The notes under the pieces were generated by a model that did not search any database, was not told where the DNA came from, and saw nothing but the letters and a program-made list of their open reading frames with translations. A stretch of DNA of 64,000 nucleotides from contig CAWIGG010000005.1 in NCBI GenBank assembly GCA_963835575.1, positions 352,001 through 416,000 of the forward strand, read 5' to 3'. Below are positions 287-60,472 of this stretch, piece after piece. Position 1 is the stretch's first letter. Each line of letters opens with the position of its first letter. This DNA comes from an uncultured Spirochaetota bacterium. GTDB lineage: Bacteria > Spirochaetota > Brevinematia > Brevinematales > JAOACQ01. Both the position numbers and the translations under genes were made by a program.

Positions 287-544
287 AACCACAGACGCCG
301 TGGTGAGCCTGTCGAACCATTGCACTGATTTCACAGATATCCATATAAATTATGACAGAAATAATATTTTTTTTACTAATAAAATTTGGAAAAAGTTATA
401 TAACCTCAAAAAAACGGGGAATAACCCTGTAATAAGTTTTTGCCTGTATGTTCGCGGATTGCCCTTAGTTCCTTTTTCCATGTTTATAATTATAACTTGA
501 TTTCACTGATACTTCCAAAATTATAATCTGTGTAATCTGTGGTT
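287..544. mobile_element. Internally deleted (MITE-like) copy of the GxxExxY element at 32509-33110
   Basis: Terminal IR aaccacaga...tctgtggtt. Bases ~445-535 align with ~32980-33066, including the first codons of the gene (MEKGTKGNPRTY vs MEKETKNDPRTY). Confidence 0.8.
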
Positions 545-30717: not shown

Positions 30718-30967
30718 CCGCGCATACACGCGAATTCACGCTAATAATTTCCCATTTAATTTTTTATTTTCTATCCCTAATTGTAAAAATTCGTATCCCT
30801 TTACTCTAATTCATATCATTAGCGTGGATTAGCGAAATACATATAAATCTCCTGAGAATACACGCAAATTTTCGGTAATAATATTAATTTCATTATGATT
30901 TCTATTCATCAATATCAATTCATATCCCCCTTCACCCCGATTCGCGTCCATTAGCGTGTATTAGCGG
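30718..30967. repeat. Gene-less element(s) with 9-nt-period inverted termini
   Basis: cacgcgaattcacgctaat ... attcgcgtccattagcgtgtattagcgg. Confidence 0.75.
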
Positions 30968-31510: not shown

Positions 31511-32467
31511 TTATTTTTTCCCCCGCGCGGGCCTGTCAAAGCCGATCTTCTCCCTGACAAAATAGAGCGGCCTTCTCTTCGTCTCATTATAGATGCGTCC
31601 GATGTATTCACCGATAATGCCGATCGCGAACAATTGAATGCCGCCCAAAAACAGGATAATTGTGATCATGGAAGCGTACCCCTGGACAGGATCGCCGAAT
31701 AAAACTTTTTTCAAAATCACATAAACGGCGTAGCAGAAGGAAAAGAAGGAAATAAAAACGCCCAGGAAGCTGGCTATCCGGAGCGGGATGTGGCTGAAGG
31801 ACGTGACGGCCTCTATGGCCAGGTTGAAGAGCTTCCGGTAGTTCCATTTGGTCTTGCCCGCATGGCGCGGGTCCCTCTCAAAAACAACACTGGTCTGTTT
31901 AAAACCGACCCAGCTGAAAAGCCCCTTCATAAAGCGGTGGGATTCCTTCAGCTCCTTCAAAGCGTCCACCACTTTCCTGTCCATCAGCCGGAAATCGCCC
32001 GTGTTTTCCTGGATATCGAATTTCGTGAATGCCTTGAATATTTTATAAAAGAAGGACGCCGTAATTTTTTTAATCCAGGTTTCCCCCTTCCTTTTGATTC
32101 TCCTGGCCGTCACAACCTCAAAGCCTTCCTTCCATTTCCGGAAAAGCTCCGGGATCAACTCAGGCGGATCCTGCAGGTCGGCGTCGATCGGAATGACAGC
32201 CCTGCCGTAAGCGAAATCGATGCCCGCGCTTAAAGCGATCTCCTTCCCGAAATTACGGGACAGGTCGATGACCTTGACCCTTTTGTCTTTTTTATTCAGA
32301 GCGGCCAGCTGCTCTAATGTATTGTCCTTACTGCCGTCATTAACGCAGATGATCTCATAGCCGGCGCCGAGCTTTTTTAAAACCGCGGAGACTTTATGAT
32401 AAAACTCGGCGATATTCTCCGATTCATTGTACATCGGAACAACGATGGATAGTGTGATATCAGCCAT
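31511..32467 (-). CDS. GT2 polyprenol-phosphate glycosyltransferase (GtrB-like)
   Basis: VPMYNE, DGSKD, SRNFGKE, DADLQDPP, GEYIGRIY.E.KRRPLY. Confidence 0.93.
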   Translation of the reverse strand: MADITLSIVVPMYNESENIAEFYHKVSAVLKKLGAGYEIICVNDGSKDNTLEQLAALNKKDKRVKVIDLSRNFGKEIALSAGIDFAYGRAVIPIDADLQDPPELIPELFRKWKEGFEVVTARRIKRKGETWIKKITASFFYKIFKAFTKFDIQENTGDFRLMDRKVVDALKELKESHRFMKGLFSWVGFKQTSVVFERDPRHAGKTKWNYRKLFNLAIEAVTSFSHIPLRIASFLGVFISFFSFCYAVYVILKKVLFGDPVQGYASMITIILFLGGIQLFAIGIIGEYIGRIYNETKRRPLYFVREKIGFDRPARGKK

Positions 32468-32508: not shown

Positions 32509-33110
32509 AACCACAGATTTCACTGATTTCACAGATATTTTCAAATAATCTGTGGTGATTACAGCCGAGCTCATCTATTTAGAATTATGGAATATATTTC
32601 CTCTGCAGGGTTTTCATTCCAGGAATAAGATCCATATCAATATACAAACCGTTTAAATTTCAATGAGCTTTCTCCAAAGTTAATCAATAAACCAACTTTC
32701 TTTCCTGAGTTCTTCAGACTGTTTATGATTTGAGCTTCATCCTCTTTCGTCAAACATCTTTCGGCTTTGATTTCAACAATAATCTCATCATAGACAATAA
32801 AATCGGGAATGTAATACTTCTTCAATTCAACGCCTTTATAGAAAACCTTAAGCAAAGGTTGAGATTCGTATAATATATCTCTCTGTCTGAATTCAATTTC
32901 AAGGCATTCCTGATATATCGCTTCCAGAAAACCTGAGCCCATTTCATTATGAACTTCAATTGCCGCACCAATAATTTCATATGTTCGCGGATCGTTCTTC
33001 GTTTCTTTTTCCATAATCTTAATTATAACATGATTACACTGATACTTTCAAAATTATAATCTGTGTCATAGTTCGGCAAGCTCACCACGGCGTCTGTGAA
33101 ATCTGTGGTT
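32509..33110. mobile_element. Putative GxxExxY mobile element with periodic terminal inverted repeats
   Basis: aaccacagatttcactgatttcacagat at the left end and tctgtgaaatctgtggtt at the right end, enclosing a single gene. Confidence 0.7.
32637..33014 (-). CDS. GxxExxY protein (PD-(D/E)XK nuclease fold)
   Basis: GSGFLEAIY, PDFIV, VEIKA, GLLINFG. Confidence 0.92.
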   Translation of the reverse strand: MEKETKNDPRTYEIIGAAIEVHNEMGSGFLEAIYQECLEIEFRQRDILYESQPLLKVFYKGVELKKYYIPDFIVYDEIIVEIKAERCLTKEDEAQIINSLKNSGKKVGLLINFGESSLKFKRFVY

Positions 33111-33133
33111 CCTTTCCGTCGTTCCTTGTCAAC

Positions 33134-34156
33134 TTACCATTTCGACTCATGCTCCTCTGTAAACCCGGCTGAGGACTTAATAGTATAGGTATTTTTACCG
33201 TCGCTGAGCGTCCCTGTAAAACTGCCGAAAAGCTGGTGGAAATAACTGGCTATCAGGCCGAGATTGAGGTTCGACGCCCTTTCGCCTTCCGGATGGAATG
33301 TCAGTTTCACCCTTCCGTCGCTTGAAACAATCCGCCATGGCGAAAGGATATGAAGGTCATCATAAATAAAATTGACCAGATCGATCTTTACCATTCTGCC
33401 GTTTATCCAGAACGCGTTCTCGCTGAACCCTGTCTCATTGATGCCCAGCGAGAAATTAAAGCCGATCGTTTTCCCCGCCTTATCCATGCCCGATCCGGAA
33501 GCCCAGTTCCAGAAGGTCATATGTCCGGGATAGCCGACGGTATAATCGATCACCCCCGCCGGGCTGCCGGTTTTTATTTCATACCTTTTTCCCTTCAAAG
33601 CAATAGCACCTCCGACGCCCAGGCCCGCTTCCTTGATCGTATAATTAAAGCCATGCAGTCCTTCCCTTGTCGCGAGGCAGAGCGGATTGGAAGCCCGCTT
33701 GAAACTGAGATCAACGTTTAATTCCCTGTTAATTGAAGCGATCAGACTGCTGTAACCGGTTTGATTATCGATTTTTATCGACAGGTCTTTACCTTTACAG
33801 CCGGTCTGTCCATGAACAGGACTCCCCCTGAAATAGGTTTTGTAACCGAAGGGACGGATAAAATTATATTCCTTCATTTTCTTTTCTTTCCTGTCAAAAA
33901 CATACGCGAAAATATTGCTGAGATAACCCAGGTGAACGACGGCGATCCCGAAGATCACCTCTTCATTACAGACGCCCATATATTCCCAGCGTTTCAGCTT
34001 GAGGGATTTATAAAGTTTTTTCTTGAAATTTGTCAGCTTGGGCATGGAGAGGGGACGGAAATCTTTGATGTTGATCTGCTGGAACGGACGGCTGTGAAGC
34101 CCGAGGTTCGGCCTGCCGTCCCGGCCGATAAGCCTGGTCAAATCATTTTTTTCCAT
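33134..34156 (-). CDS. DUF2804 family protein
   Basis: KRWEY, TFWNWASGSG, ENAFWING, QLFGSFTG, GFTEEHESKW. Confidence 0.8.
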   Translation of the reverse strand: MEKNDLTRLIGRDGRPNLGLHSRPFQQINIKDFRPLSMPKLTNFKKKLYKSLKLKRWEYMGVCNEEVIFGIAVVHLGYLSNIFAYVFDRKEKKMKEYNFIRPFGYKTYFRGSPVHGQTGCKGKDLSIKIDNQTGYSSLIASINRELNVDLSFKRASNPLCLATREGLHGFNYTIKEAGLGVGGAIALKGKRYEIKTGSPAGVIDYTVGYPGHMTFWNWASGSGMDKAGKTIGFNFSLGINETGFSENAFWINGRMVKIDLVNFIYDDLHILSPWRIVSSDGRVKLTFHPEGERASNLNLGLIASYFHQLFGSFTGTLSDGKNTYTIKSSAGFTEEHESKW

Positions 34157-43915: not shown

Positions 43916-44037
43916 AGCCGCAGAATGACACGGAATAACACTGAATTTTTATATTATATATAAATATAAGATTCTACTTTAAATTGCTAAAGATATTAAT
44001 GTTTTATTTCTGTGCTCTTCAGTGAAATTCTGTGGCT
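43916..44037. repeat. Gene-less element with 9-nt-period inverted termini
   Basis: agccgcagaatgacacggaataacactgaa ... ttctgtgctcttcagtgaaattctgtggct. Confidence 0.75.
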
Positions 44038-48851: not shown

Positions 48852-49005
48852 CCGCCAAGCCACGCGAATACACGCGAATTTCTATATTAGCTAATAATAT
48901 CAATATAACTTATTTTGCTAATACTGTCCATTGCTGATAAAGAAATAAGCCGGGTATAATTTACTATCCGCATTTATTGGGGCGTTTATCAGCGTGCATT
49001 AGCGG
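48852..49005. repeat. Gene-less element with 9-nt-period inverted termini
   Basis: cacgcgaatacacgcgaat ... atcagcgtgcattagcgg. Confidence 0.7.
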
Positions 49006-56848: not shown

Positions 56849-59800
56849 ATGGAAATGAAGGAAAAGCTGAAATCGTTAAAAATACTTACGGATAATTTCA
56901 AAGCCAACATTAAACAATATAAAAGTCTTTCCTATGACGAAGCCAATACACGGGTGGATTTTATCGATAAATTCTTCGAGATTCTGGACTGGGATGTCAG
57001 AAACGAGCAGGGTTATTCCGAGGATTACAGGGATGTGGTGCGTGAAGACAGGGTCGTCATCGCCGGAAAACCGAAGGCGCCGGATTACAGCTTCCGCATC
57101 GGCGGCGGCCGCAAGTTTTTCGTGGAAGCCAAAAAACCCAGCGTCAACGTTAAAGAGGAAATCGATCCGGCCTATCAAATCCGCCGTTACGGTTATACCG
57201 CGAAAGTTCCCCTGTCAATCCTGACTGACTTTGAGGAATTCGCCGTTTATGACACCCGCATTAAGCCCCACAAAAACGATAAGGCAAGCGTCAGCCGGGT
57301 CTTCTACTGCATTTACGACGAATATGAAAAGCAGTTCGATTTTATTTACAATACTTTTTCTAAAAACGCCATACTCAAGGGGAGCTTCGACAGGTATATC
57401 GGGGAAAGCAAAATCAAAAAAGGCACTTCGGAAGTGGACAGGGAATTCCTCAAGCTTATCTCGGACTGGCGCGAGGAGCTGGCGAAAAACATTGCGCTCC
57501 GGAATTCCGACCTCGATATTTACCAGATCAATTACGCCGTCCAGAAAATCATCGACAGGGTCATATTTCTTCGGATCGCCGAGGACAGGGGCACGGAAAA
57601 GTACGGCAGTATCCGGGAAATGACCGGGCAGAGGAACGCCTACGCTTCCCTGAACTCATTATTTGTCAGGGCAAACGACAAGTACGACAGCGACCTCTTC
57701 AAAATCGAGCCGTTTCTAGTTAGCCTCTCCATAGACAACGATCTTTTGATTGATATTGCTTCACAAATGTACTACCCGGACTGTCCTTATGAGTTTTCCG
57801 TGCTTCCCATCGAGGCGCTGGGAAATATCTATGAGCAGTTCCTCGGCAAGATCATCCGGCTTACCGCCGGACATCAGGCCAAAGTGGAAGAAAAGCCGGA
57901 AGTCAGGAAAGCCGGCGGCGTTTACTACACCCCTCAATACATTGTGAATTATATCGTTGAAAATACCGTGGGCGCCCTATTAAAAGGTGAAACATGCAAC
58001 CCCGGTGCCACAGGCATTCCTGCCTGTGGCAATAATCCCGCGTTAAAAATAAAAAAGAGAAACCTGCCTCACTGGACAATCGATGACGCGACATATTTTA
58101 TCACTTTTAACAGCATTGACAGAAAACCATTATCATCAGAAGATCAGAAAATAGCAATGGATCATATTAAAGAGGGAAATAATAAATTTTATGATTTATT
58201 ATGCGTTGTAATAATGCCGGATCATGTTCATCTCATATTCAAACCCCTGGAAAAGTACAACCTGCCGGATATTATGAAAGGGATAAAGGGCGTATCAGCG
58301 CATAAGATTAACGTGAAAAACGGCGGCACAGGTTCGATCTGGCAGGACGAGTCTTATGACAGGATTATCAGAAATGAAAAAGAACTGATTGAAAAGATAC
58401 ATTATATGTATGATAACCCGAAAAAAGAAGGTTTAACAGAAGAAACTTACGATTATTCCGGCTGGTATTTTAATGAGGAATATTTTGGAAGCCCTGCAGA
58501 TCAGTCTGTTGATAAAGTCACAGACAGGAATGTCTGTAATACCGCTGGTAAAACCAGTAAAAGAAGTGGTACAGACAACCGTGCCACAGACATTCCTGTC
58601 TGTGGTTCACCAATGACCCCCGCTGAAATCTCCAAACTTAAAATCCTCGACCCCGCTTGCGGTTCCGGCTCGTTCCTGATCGGGGCTTATACATACCTCC
58701 TCAATTACCATAAAAAATACTACACCGATGAAAAGAGGATCGGCAAGGCCCTCAAGGAAGGGAAAATCTACCAGATCGACGAAAAGCATTACCATCTCTC
58801 TATAAAGGAAAAGCAGAAGATACTTCTGAACAATATCTACGGCGTGGACATCGACCCTCAGGCCGTGGAAGTGACCAAGCTTTCGCTCTATCTCAAGCTG
58901 ATGGAAAACGAGGCGTCCGAAACGGAAGAATTCCTCGGCGGGCATGAATGGAAAAGCGGAAGGGACAAACTCCTGCCCGGCCTCTCAGACAATATCAAAT
59001 GCGGCAACAGCCTCATCGCCAGCGATTTTTATGATGACTCAGGCTCCCTGTTCGATAAAGAGACGATCCGGTCGATCAATGCATTTGATTGGGAAAAGGA
59101 GTTCCCGGAAGTATTTAAAACTTCAACGGAAAAAGGTCCACGCAATATCAATGGTGCCACAGGCATTCCTGCCTGTGGTCAGGATCATCCCGGCGAGGGT
59201 AATAAAAAGTCCACAGACAAGAATGTCTGTGACACCAATGTCTGTGGCACCGTATCTAATACCGGCGGGTTTGATGTGGTGATCGGGAACCCGCCGTATA
59301 CCTACTTAATTTCTTTAGAGGAACAAAAATATTATTCTGAGAAATACAAACATCAGGATTATCAAAAAGACCTTTATTTATTATTTTTGGAAAGATACAG
59401 CAAATTATTAAAAATAAATGGGGTTTTAGGTATCATTATATCTAATACCTGGCTTCAATCGTTGACATATCAAAAAATTAGAATCTATATGACATCTTTT
59501 TACAAATGGAAAAAGATTTTACATATACCTGAAAAGGTCTTTAATGCCGTAGTTGATACTCATATTTTAATATTTGAAAGAAAAGATATTTTAGAAACGG
59601 ATGATTATAATTTTGATATTGAAATTTTAAGAAATAATAGTATTGTTCCTTCTCATACACTGTCAATTAAAGATATACCTCGAAACGGTGATTCAATCAA
59701 CATTGTGGCTGATAAATCAAAGAGAGTTATTTATAAAAAAATCATAGGAAAATCAAAACTTTTAAAAGAATTATATACTGTCTATAACGGAGTGAAACCT

Positions 59801-60472
59801 TTTGAAAAAGGTAAAGGAAATCCGCCTCAAATGGAAAAGACAATGAAAGAAAAACCATTTGTTAAAGAAGGTAAACGTCCCGGAAAGGAATGGAAACCTT
59901 TATTAAGGGGCAGTTTGATAAACCGTTATATAAATCTTTGGAATAAAGATTACTGGATTCTTTATGGTGAATGGTTGGCTGCGCCAAGGAATCCTAAAAT
60001 ATTTGATGCAGAATTAAAACTGCTTGTTAGGCAGACTGGAGATTCAATAATATCTACAATAGTACAAGAAGGTTATATCGCAAGAGATAATTTACATATT
60101 ATTTTATCGAGTAATAACAATAATTTATTATACCTATTAGGAATATTAAATTCTAAGCTAATGGATTTTGCTTATACTATTTTAAATCCAGAAAAAGGTG
60201 AAGCCTTAGCTCAAGTAAAGAAAGAACATGTTGAATATTTACCTATTAAAACAATAGATTTCTCAAAACATCTAGAAAAAGAAAAGCATGATAAAATGGT
60301 TTCACTCGTCAACAAAATGCTAACTACTCAAAATGAAATCAACAACACCAAAAACGAGCAGGATAAGGCGCTTTTACAGAAGCAGGCCGACCTTCTGGAC
60401 AGGCAGATCGACCGGCTGGTGTATGAGCTGTATGGGTTGACGGAGGAGGAGATCAAGGTGGTAGAGGGATGA
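56849..60472 (+). CDS. Type IIG (Eco57I-like) restriction-modification enzyme with an in-frame RAYT domain
   Basis: PDY...VEAKK nuclease; GVYYTP, LDPACGSGSF and GNPPY adenine methyltransferase motifs; C-terminal TRD and IDRLVYELYGL. Confidence 0.92.
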   Translation: MEMKEKLKSLKILTDNFKANIKQYKSLSYDEANTRVDFIDKFFEILDWDVRNEQGYSEDYRDVVREDRVVIAGKPKAPDYSFRIGGGRKFFVEAKKPSVNVKEEIDPAYQIRRYGYTAKVPLSILTDFEEFAVYDTRIKPHKNDKASVSRVFYCIYDEYEKQFDFIYNTFSKNAILKGSFDRYIGESKIKKGTSEVDREFLKLISDWREELAKNIALRNSDLDIYQINYAVQKIIDRVIFLRIAEDRGTEKYGSIREMTGQRNAYASLNSLFVRANDKYDSDLFKIEPFLVSLSIDNDLLIDIASQMYYPDCPYEFSVLPIEALGNIYEQFLGKIIRLTAGHQAKVEEKPEVRKAGGVYYTPQYIVNYIVENTVGALLKGETCNPGATGIPACGNNPALKIKKRNLPHWTIDDATYFITFNSIDRKPLSSEDQKIAMDHIKEGNNKFYDLLCVVIMPDHVHLIFKPLEKYNLPDIMKGIKGVSAHKINVKNGGTGSIWQDESYDRIIRNEKELIEKIHYMYDNPKKEGLTEETYDYSGWYFNEEYFGSPADQSVDKVTDRNVCNTAGKTSKRSGTDNRATDIPVCGSPMTPAEISKLKILDPACGSGSFLIGAYTYLLNYHKKYYTDEKRIGKALKEGKIYQIDEKHYHLSIKEKQKILLNNIYGVDIDPQAVEVTKLSLYLKLMENEASETEEFLGGHEWKSGRDKLLPGLSDNIKCGNSLIASDFYDDSGSLFDKETIRSINAFDWEKEFPEVFKTSTEKGPRNINGATGIPACGQDHPGEGNKKSTDKNVCDTNVCGTVSNTGGFDVVIGNPPYTYLISLEEQKYYSEKYKHQDYQKDLYLLFLERYSKLLKINGVLGIIISNTWLQSLTYQKIRIYMTSFYKWKKILHIPEKVFNAVVDTHILIFERKDILETDDYNFDIEILRNNSIVPSHTLSIKDIPRNGDSINIVADKSKRVIYKKIIGKSKLLKELYTVYNGVKPFEKGKGNPPQMEKTMKEKPFVKEGKRPGKEWKPLLRGSLINRYINLWNKDYWILYGEWLAAPRNPKIFDAELKLLVRQTGDSIISTIVQEGYIARDNLHIILSSNNNNLLYLLGILNSKLMDFAYTILNPEKGEALAQVKKEHVEYLPIKTIDFSKHLEKEKHDKMVSLVNKMLTTQNEINNTKNEQDKALLQKQADLLDRQIDRLVYELYGLTEEEIKVVEG
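58006..58605 (+). mobile_element. RAYT (Y1 HUH transposase) domain with flanking REP palindromes, embedded in frame
   Basis: RNLPHW, YFITF, MPDHVH (HUH), WQDESYDRIIR, Y..DNP; REPs at 58006-58031, 58520-58537 and 58584-58605. Confidence 0.9.
59153..59251. repeat. REP doublet (REPIN-like) inside the RM coding sequence
   Basis: ggtgccacaggcattcctgcctgtgg ... cacagacaagaatgtctgtg ... aatgtctgtggcacc. Confidence 0.88.

Follow-up and report, generated by a model that had tools for sequence, protein, structure and literature searches.

Inverted periodic repeats enclose a predicted GxxExxY nuclease gene in a cassette that comparative genomics suggests is mobile between fixed slots

The window analysed here, the whole stretch of 64,000 nucleotides from the genome that we call G000, contains a compact cassette between a DUF2804 gene and a glycosyltransferase gene. 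The cassette and its surroundings comprise the following features.

32509..33110, minus strand: full cassette, arm to arm, 602 bp
33037..33110, minus strand: upstream arm, with three outward words, one of them shifted by a 24-nt insert, and an inner inverted word at 33037-33043
33069..33092, minus strand: small 24-nt repeat nested within the upstream arm, with 30 genome matches to its core
33022..33051, minus strand: sigma-70-like promoter match (TTGAAA, 18 nt, TG-TATAAT; 11/12), a consensus match only
32637..33014, minus strand: GxxExxY (PF13366/TIGR04256) gene, 125 aa, PD-(D/E)XK fold, with Thr11 as candidate specificity residue
32509..32556, plus strand: downstream arm, with three words of 9-nt period at 32509-32536 and an inner inverted word at 32548-32556
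33111..33133, minus strand: family-conserved flank beyond the upstream arm, 13/15 to the family consensus, reaching the DUF2804 stop codon
32489..32508, plus strand: flank beyond the downstream arm, weakly family-like (8/15)
33134..34156, minus strand: host gene upstream of the slot, DUF2804 (context, outside the element)
31511..32467, minus strand: glycosyltransferase family 2 gene of the host, downstream of the slot (context, outside the element)

The element starts with AACCACAGAT-TTCACTGAT-TTCACAGAT, its opposite end is the reverse complement of that word array, and the arms are inverted arrays of the 7-base word CACAGAT with a 9-nt period around one intact GxxExxY gene. The first-pass annotation of this DNA had described the gene as enclosed by inverted termini built from units of about 9 nt, and the arms at 32509-33110 around the ORF at 32637-33014 bear this out. 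Each arm also carries an inner word that faces inward, so that each arm would form a small hairpin by itself. The predicted promoter is part of the upstream arm; its spacer contains the inner word, and 8 nt separate it from the start codon. The predicted fold of the full element includes a terminal stem and is modestly better than that of shuffled sequences (z -2.7). Eleven contig pieces from one sequencing run showed no junction that spans the element.

The single ORF of the element matches TIGR04256 alone (E-value 7e-41; 139 bits against a cut-off of 35), with no known transposase class encoded, and also scores above the PF13366 cut-off. The AlphaFold model of the protein (pLDDT 92) adopts a PD-(D/E)XK fold, for which Foldseek returned Cas4 SSO0001 as the best match (E-value 7e-4). 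The VIA fold search gave Z scores of 7.7 for BpuSI and 7.5 for SSO0001, tied with other PD-(D/E)XK folds, and even the best of these may mean no more than a common arrangement. A sequence search of the PDB produced no related solved structure (one match, E-value 5.2). Across 106 diverse members of the family, the residues E31, D71, E81, K83 and Q95 are conserved in 105-106, and D71, E81 and K83 in all 106. The model, the Cas4-like and restriction-type fold matches and the retained catalytic residues all agree with the fold assigned at first pass. The protein has the fold and the catalytic E...D...ExK...Q set in common with Cas4/RecB-type nucleases; unlike Cas4, it lacks the Fe-S cluster cysteines, has only 125 residues and scores equally against several restriction-type folds (Z 7-8), and a shared fold in itself shows no function. 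Position 99, in the QxxxY motif, is Ser in the focal clade and Tyr in most of the family, and the activity of the focal clade may differ for this reason. Among three intact congener copies dN/dS is about 0.08 (0.07-0.09), which implies purifying selection on the gene; the dS of the same copies is 0.86-1.5, compared with 2.6 in the neighbouring host gene. A 2012 survey entered the function of PDDEXK_3 as 'Unknown' in its accessible part (PMC3424549). On the strength of the modelled fold and the conserved residues, we regard the GxxExxY protein as a predicted nuclease.

The arms belong to a family that is dispersed across the genome. The terminal 9-mer occurs 68 times in G000 against about 15 expected, and pairing of termini gave 26 rows, which reduce to 25 elements of 71-602 bp once one nested row is dropped. 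A generic scan for paired periodic arms recovered 152 rows in five word classes (including some nested duplicates) compared with none in the reversed genome. All nine PF13366 matches in G000 sit in inverted periodic arms, one of them with a low score, and the word follows the protein clade. Among the 25 elements one has an intact gene and another a full-length gene with one stop (74% aa identity), while some coding sequence is kept in 14 of the 18 elements that entered a nucleotide alignment, with breakpoints that differ among copies. The highest identity between any two of the 25 copies is 81%, the best of 300 pairs. We found no excess of target-site duplications at these 25 elements for k=5-8 (observed 12, 6, 2 and 0; expected 13.7, 5.2, 2.2 and 0.7). 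Similarity among copies extends beyond the repeats at 0.50-0.55 over the first 10 bp and 0.38-0.43 over the next, and falls to 0.26-0.29 past 30 bp; several copies have around 45 bp in common outside the upstream arm. Family conservation reaches about 20 bp past the inverted repeats, which therefore do not mark the exact limits of the element. A promoter match of 10-11/12 at the position of the focal promoter was present in 5 of the 25 elements examined. The elements lie in all four classes of orientation relative to host genes (8, 7, 6 and 4 of 25), some of these orientations being guessed.

Several minor observations concern the arms and their surroundings. The shared outer flank begins, in at least six G000 copies (for example C3:125316 and C6:88526), at a 10-bp palindrome-like motif about 40 bp beyond the upstream arm, which is possibly the true end of the element or a trace of the parent site. 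At one copy in the congeneric genome G002 (L047, C1:1510159-1510659) around 35 bp beyond both arms form an extra imperfect inverted repeat, which is not a general feature; the inverted flank duplication that this copy suggested was rejected, as same-element scores equalled cross-element scores in five sets. The 24-nt dispersed repeat has 30 core matches genome-wide, many of them within arms of word classes other than the focal one; besides arms of several classes it also occupies other sites, and we take it to resemble the small dispersed repeats of cyanobacteria. Paired-arm elements of other classes (CGCGAAT/CGCTAAT and CACAGAA) lie in the window at about 30729-30966, 43919-44034 and 48853-49004 (G000 C5:382729-382966, 395919-396034 and 400853-401004). 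A broken GIY-YIG gene at C2:667062-667464 of G000 lies within several nested layers of arms of different word classes.

A second member of the family lies near the left edge of the window.

287..544, minus strand: gene-less relative, 258 bp, with the same arms, a promoter match of 10/12 and the first 13 codons; the rest of the interior is unalignable
443..481, minus strand: remnant of the first 13 GxxExxY codons, inside the short element
296..319, plus strand: 24-nt repeat nested within the short element's downstream arm

The short and focal elements are 86% identical across 90 bp of upstream arm and gene start, and 9 of the translated codons 1-13 are identical. Alignment to the focal coding sequence is confined to nt 1-35, with about 95 bp of retained interior unalignable, and the foreign 24-nt repeat is in the upstream arm of the full element and the downstream arm of the short one. 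Two other copies (69% and 67%) resemble the short element more closely than the focal copy does, which makes the short element a decayed derivative of a sibling copy and not a deletion of the focal one. The earlier claim of a deleted derivative at 287-544 therefore stands as to the shared termini, upstream region and first codons, and fails as to descent from the focal copy. The predicted fold of the short element is no better than that of shuffles (z -0.76), and its flanks did not map in the five relatives G001-G004 and G009. At C5:349642-350916, 1.1 kb left of the window and one gene from the short element, there is a 425-aa ORF that by eye resembles an IS110-family transposase.

Comparison with relatives of G000 provides evidence of presence and absence. 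The congener G002 contains two intact cassettes (82-86% aa identity) at sites that are non-orthologous to the focal one. Of 23 G002 elements or single arms tested, 20 have a flank that maps closely to G000; six of these 20 coincide with a G000 arm element, against 3-5% of gene ends, and in four of the six the coinciding G000 element is of another word class. At five syntenic sites G002 has an element and G000 has no arms. The cassette is absent upstream of the focal glycosyltransferase gene in G001-G004 and G009, where the upstream neighbour differs, so that these relatives give no clean empty-site junction for the focal locus. A relic of the upstream arm, 31 of 37 bp, persists in the focal slot of G001; none was seen in the other four relatives.

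In G002 the same upstream and downstream arms also enclose unrelated low-GC genes, which include an ankyrin protein, a methyltransferase fragment, a PtuA/PtuB-like pair and membrane proteins. The PtuA/PtuB-like pair, an ATPase and an HNH protein, lies between CACAGAT arms at L102:1536-3730. Two G002 elements carry homologous cargo in opposite orientation, and one element keeps the last codons of the nuclease gene beside its cargo.

The association between gene and arms extends beyond this genome, and the flank survey that the first-pass annotation had proposed as a check found the arms to be associated with the gene family. The median inverted-repeat score was 36 at 54 GxxExxY loci and 18 in 600 control ORFs, and a shared periodic word was present on both sides in 29 of the 54 loci compared with 7 of the 600 controls. 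For 107 further loci, out of 118 submitted (the others were dropped for short flanks or because they gave no match), 90 scored at or above the 95th percentile of the control. Overall, 106 of 161 loci have word chains on both sides. The metagenome scan kept 80 of 584 loci, a sample biased to relatives of the focal clade because the diverse alignment was unusable in the scan. Within the focal clade (support 99/83) a CACAGAT-type word accompanies the gene in records from Spirochaetaceae, Marinimicrobia, KSB1 and Planctomycetota. Among 201 genomes of the phylum of the window, the multi-copy arm pattern is confined to G000 (58) and G002 (18), with one match in each of eight others, and the protein clade of more than 70% identity is present in the same two genomes only; G000 and G002 are congeners, so this co-occurrence counts as one lineage. 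Relatives in plasmids and viruses were limited to 7 of 72,556 plasmid records and two viral loci, in collections that under-represent the host phyla.

The arm word changes with the protein. Position 5 of the word changes 11 times on the protein tree and position 7 nine times, compared with 34 and 41 changes for shuffled labels. Where word position 5 is G, Thr11 is present at 43 of 50 loci; where it is A, at none of 50. Independent pairs number about five concordant and none discordant (p 0.0625), in a test that cannot reach 0.05; the link was chosen post hoc from 125 columns and three positions, and is therefore a lead and not proof. Word position 7 has several residue partners that rest on one independent contrast, and position 2 has no good residue partner.

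The most informative comparison comes from 47 genomes of the family of G219, the Brocadiaceae, most of which are metagenome assemblies in which chimeric contigs are possible. Here the focal clade occupies one slot in 14 of 16 loci, between genes that, from our reading of the sequence, we take to be an efflux adaptor-like gene (cusB) and a cusA-like gene. Of 41 places found, 30 loci of this cusB-cusA slot were analysed: 19 contain CACAGAT cassettes, intact or decayed, nine contain CGCAGAG cassettes with another GxxExxY clade, one has a four-helix-bundle cassette, one has bare arms and none is empty. The four-helix-bundle gene (TIGR02436; L196:2092-2466, minus strand) is itself flanked by arms of a different kind, built from heptamer repeats. 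The one four-helix-bundle gene of G000 is at C6:2193-2513. On the cusA tree the slot switches cassette type nine times, and an AU test rejects the grouping of all CGCAGAG hosts in one clade (p 0.0006). Between hosts that differ in cassette, the first flanking windows are 96-100% identical, and the flanks track the host from within 60-100 bp of the cassette. The CGCAGAG cassette has each of its 11 best full-length matches in this slot, and the next match, at 72%, is at another locus. In one pair dS is 0.18 for the cassette against 1.21 for cusA, and in another it is 1.26 against 0.20. Replacement of one GxxExxY cassette by another at a single slot is thus backed by tree, tract and dS tests. Identity of CACAGAT cassettes correlates with that of cusA (r 0.56 over 45 pairs), which indicates that much of the inheritance is vertical.

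A second Brocadiaceae slot has both filled and empty alleles in sister species, with junctions that fall in A-runs. From 47 places we took 30, one of which was mis-anchored and was dropped; there were four full cassettes, one partial cassette, three arm remnants and 13 gaps of 0-7 bp, the rest being short armless gaps or junctions missed by the anchors. In one pair dS is 0.05 in the cassette and 0.52 in the flank. Many of the empty alleles look like losses via microhomology in the A-runs. Three relatives of a Scalindua copy have a short empty gap at 65% identity. Empty orthologous sites, which the first-pass annotation had named as a check, were thus found both in the congener and in the Brocadiaceae as presence/absence polymorphism, although no base-precise insertion junction was obtained in the genomes compared. 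The idea of a mobile class tied to GxxExxY that is neither DDE nor HUH gains from this polymorphism and from the association with arms, the two points whose absence the first-pass annotation had named as refuting it. The accompanying picture of an insertion sequence with MITE-like derivatives does not survive: target duplications are absent, the ends are ragged, the best pair of copies is 81% identical and the breakpoints are heterogeneous, and the main movement seen is the replacement of cassette by cassette at the same slot between species.

Comparative genomics supports mobility of the cassette, and the role of the enzyme is our inference from it. The reading that we favour, with a probability of about one half, is that of a selfish slot cassette, in which the nuclease reads the word of its own arms and host recombination copies the cassette into the matching slot. 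It takes in the anatomy, the match of word and protein clade, the exchange at slots, the filled and empty alleles, the cargo and gene-less forms and the absence of target duplications. The GxxExxY protein would probably bind its own arm word, as the covariation of Thr11 with base 5 and the conserved catalytic set suggest, and would probably nick or cut at or just outside the arms. Its substrate would be the folded-back arms in single-stranded DNA, for instance incoming or lagging-strand DNA, in which the paired arms would loop the gene out and bring the two flanks together as in an empty site. A cut near the base of the stem would favour copying into a matching slot, with replacement of the previous occupant, by host recombination that would use a few tens of bases of flanking homology. 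Rare mis-aimed events would seed new slots and carry along 20-45 bp of the old flank. The inner word in the promoter spacer would provide autoregulation. Deletions between short homologies (microhomology) would leave alleles that are empty, one-armed or without the gene, and the cargo forms would stem from repair that drew on foreign DNA. The four-helix-bundle cassette in the same slot and the nuclease-less cargo elements indicate that arms and slot exchange need no nuclease in cis, and that the nuclease itself moves the element is a conjecture drawn from the comparisons. More tentatively, and at somewhat less than even odds, the cassettes may constitute a new class of prokaryotic mobile DNA, 'slot-homing' cassettes, in which a PD-(D/E)XK nuclease of 125 aa reads the periodic word of its own folded arms and pushes its cassette into the allelic intergenic slot of related genomes at the expense of rivals with another word specificity, with residue 11 providing a one-residue, one-base code. 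Leftover arm pairs would then be promoter-bearing landing pads for foreign genes.

The main rival, which holds that position because a non-nuclease cassette uses the same slot, is that ordinary host recombination alone swaps the cassette. The nuclease would then be a payload (Ssn-like control of incoming DNA, defence or addiction), the arms would be binding or operator sites, and the hairpin would do no more than help a heterologous insert to be taken up. This account fits the long vertical persistence in a single slot (dN/dS near 0.1), the promoter with an inner word in its spacer and, in the accessible part of its description, the precedent of SsnA, which modulates transformation (PMC11893778), and homologous recombination among species could exchange alleles without any drive. 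It leaves unexplained the 25 dispersed copies of one arm family, 14 of them with gene pieces among the 18 aligned, the shared 20-bp outer flanks at unrelated sites and the finding that, among 201 genomes, the same two carry both the arm copies and the gene clade, and we consider it unlikely on balance. An autonomous insertion sequence with terminal inverted repeats, in which GxxExxY would be a cut-and-paste or copy transposase with MITE-like derivatives, would account for a gene boxed by inverted termini, for intact copies at non-orthologous sites in G000 and G002 (82-86% aa identity, dS 0.86-1.5 against 2.6) and for the five syntenic G000 sites empty of arms. We regard it as improbable given the lack of target duplications at k=5-8, of near-identical copies and of uniform breakpoints, the fidelity to slots, the few plasmid and viral relatives (in collections that, as stated, under-represent the host phyla) and a 125-aa fold with no integrase or strand-transfer domain.

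The arms might instead be REP-like ends that an HUH enzyme (RAYT, IS200 or IS91) mobilises in trans, with GxxExxY as a passenger or helper. Like the cassette, HUH elements have arms that form hairpins, lack target duplications and conserve sequence beyond the hairpin, and G000 has a RAYT-like gene beside a CACAGAG arm as well as a methyltransferase with a fused RAYT domain. We give this little credence: the arm word tracks the GxxExxY clade and one of its residues and not an HUH gene, and the RAYT-like gene has different palindromes of its own. No HUH gene lies inside the element, with two Y1 matches elsewhere in G000, and a search for Y2 transposases gave no match in G000 and none in 14 controls. 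The explanation that we find hardest to credit is a role in RNA, by which the arms would pair in the operon transcript and RNase III or GxxExxY would excise or neutralise the insert in the manner of an intervening sequence. Four-helix-bundle proteins are known from 23S rRNA intervening sequences, a four-helix-bundle gene shares the cusB-cusA slot, the predicted fold of the focal element has a terminal stem, and some of the PD-(D/E)XK-fold matches are RNA endonucleases. Against this, elements occur in all four orientations to host genes (partly guessed), the base-specific covariation with a periodic word suits DNA binding, and a role in RNA offers no route by which DNA copies would spread.

Of known systems, the slot cassettes work most like a cross between Ssn/SRM, REPIN/RAYT and free-standing homing endonucleases, and differ from each in a defining respect. 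In the accessible portions of its description (PMC11893778), the Ssn/SRM system (NTS-ssnA-NTS) likewise has a small single-domain nuclease gene between its own hairpin repeats, many dispersed gene-less repeats and many enzyme-repeat pairs, with mobility as a proposal only. Ssn is a GIY-YIG enzyme whereas the cassette encodes a PD-(D/E)XK protein, and SRMs are hairpins of 20-50 nt in contrast to word arrays of 9-nt period with distinct upstream and downstream arms; these portions describe neither replacement by a rival cassette at one slot nor cargo between arms (PMC11893778). REPIN/RAYT, REPtrons and TIRtrons, as far as the available text of the reports goes (PMC3116915, PMC3733652), resemble the cassettes in that the enzyme gene lies next to repeats of its own type, that one genome has several such types, that the repeats form inverted pairs between genes and that enzyme and repeat have long co-evolved. 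Enzyme-specific paired inverted repeats dispersed between genes were found here too; an HUH Y1 gene associated with them was not. RAYT and TIRYT are HUH tyrosine transposases, single-copy and not self-mobile in that text (PMC3116915, PMC3733652), unlike the GxxExxY cassettes, which are multi-copy, have the gene inside the pair, decay to gene-less forms and move across species at fixed slots.

The free-standing homing endonucleases of T4-like phages provide, in the accessible part of that account (PMC2988022), the precedent of intronless homing, in which an intergenic nuclease gene between conserved genes spreads to allelic sites by recombination and one endonuclease gene can replace another. 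They are GIY-YIG or HNH enzymes described there as lacking repeat arms, and they cleave the recipient at a distance of hundreds to thousands of bp and with significant co-conversion (PMC2988022). The cassettes resemble them in slot-to-slot transfer between related genomes. They differ in that flank exchange is under about 100 bp in place of long co-conversion, the word that is probably recognised, judging by covariation, is in the donor's own ends, and the derivatives are dispersed. Insertion sequences with terminal inverted repeats and their MITEs have inverted termini around one gene and internally deleted copies. The cassette is like them in both respects and unlike them in having no DDE, HUH, serine or DEDD transposase, no target duplication, no fixed ends and no burst of near-identical copies.

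The system is real, widespread and apparently undescribed as a system, and the repeats alone were already noted in Geobacter in 2009 (PMC2700814). The available text of that report describes 'class 2 predicted global regulator binding sites' in Geobacter metallireducens that are paired on opposite strands, with three tandem repeats whose consensus is the reverse complement of a CACGGAG word and with variable spacing; it reads them as regulator or IHF/HU sites and, in that text, draws no link to GxxExxY or to mobility (PMC2700814). For another class of site the same report notes that the proBA space has a different conserved sequence in a sister species (PMC2700814). The accessible part of a further description of multicopy repeats makes no link to a nuclease (PMC2996986). 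Our literature search, with most subscription papers and bioRxiv supplements outside its reach, found GxxExxY nowhere tied to repeats or mobility, and a search for four-helix-bundle genes with repeats, again with most subscription papers outside it, found nothing.

For a widespread family with no described function, these data propose the word of its own arms as substrate and one residue as the candidate for specificity, and they reinterpret abundant paired intergenic repeats, once read as regulator sites, as footprints of mobile cassettes. The slots show replacement of cassette by cassette with almost no exchange of flanks, which models of IS/MITE or REPIN/RAYT do not predict. To judge by the cargo forms, bacteria may also have a way to stock defence and membrane genes between housekeeping genes that involves no integrase. 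Should the nuclease act on folded single strands, it would be the second such family after Ssn, with a different fold; if the 'slot-homing' reading is true, the GxxExxY proteins would make up a natural library of very small nucleases that are reprogrammable and specific to structure and sequence.

Three further loci in G000 carry genes of the RAYT or GIY-YIG type. The window encodes, at 56849-60472 on the plus strand, a 1207-aa adenine methyltransferase (PglX or type II RM-like) with an in-frame REP-associated tyrosine transposase domain at residues 408-537 that scores above the NF047646 cut-off. A RAYT-like gene with its own palindromic repeats is found at C2:500597-500758, just within a CACAGAG-type arm. 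A small GIY-YIG gene lies between its own long repeats at C4:1026468-1026683, and is likely an Ssn/SRM-type locus.
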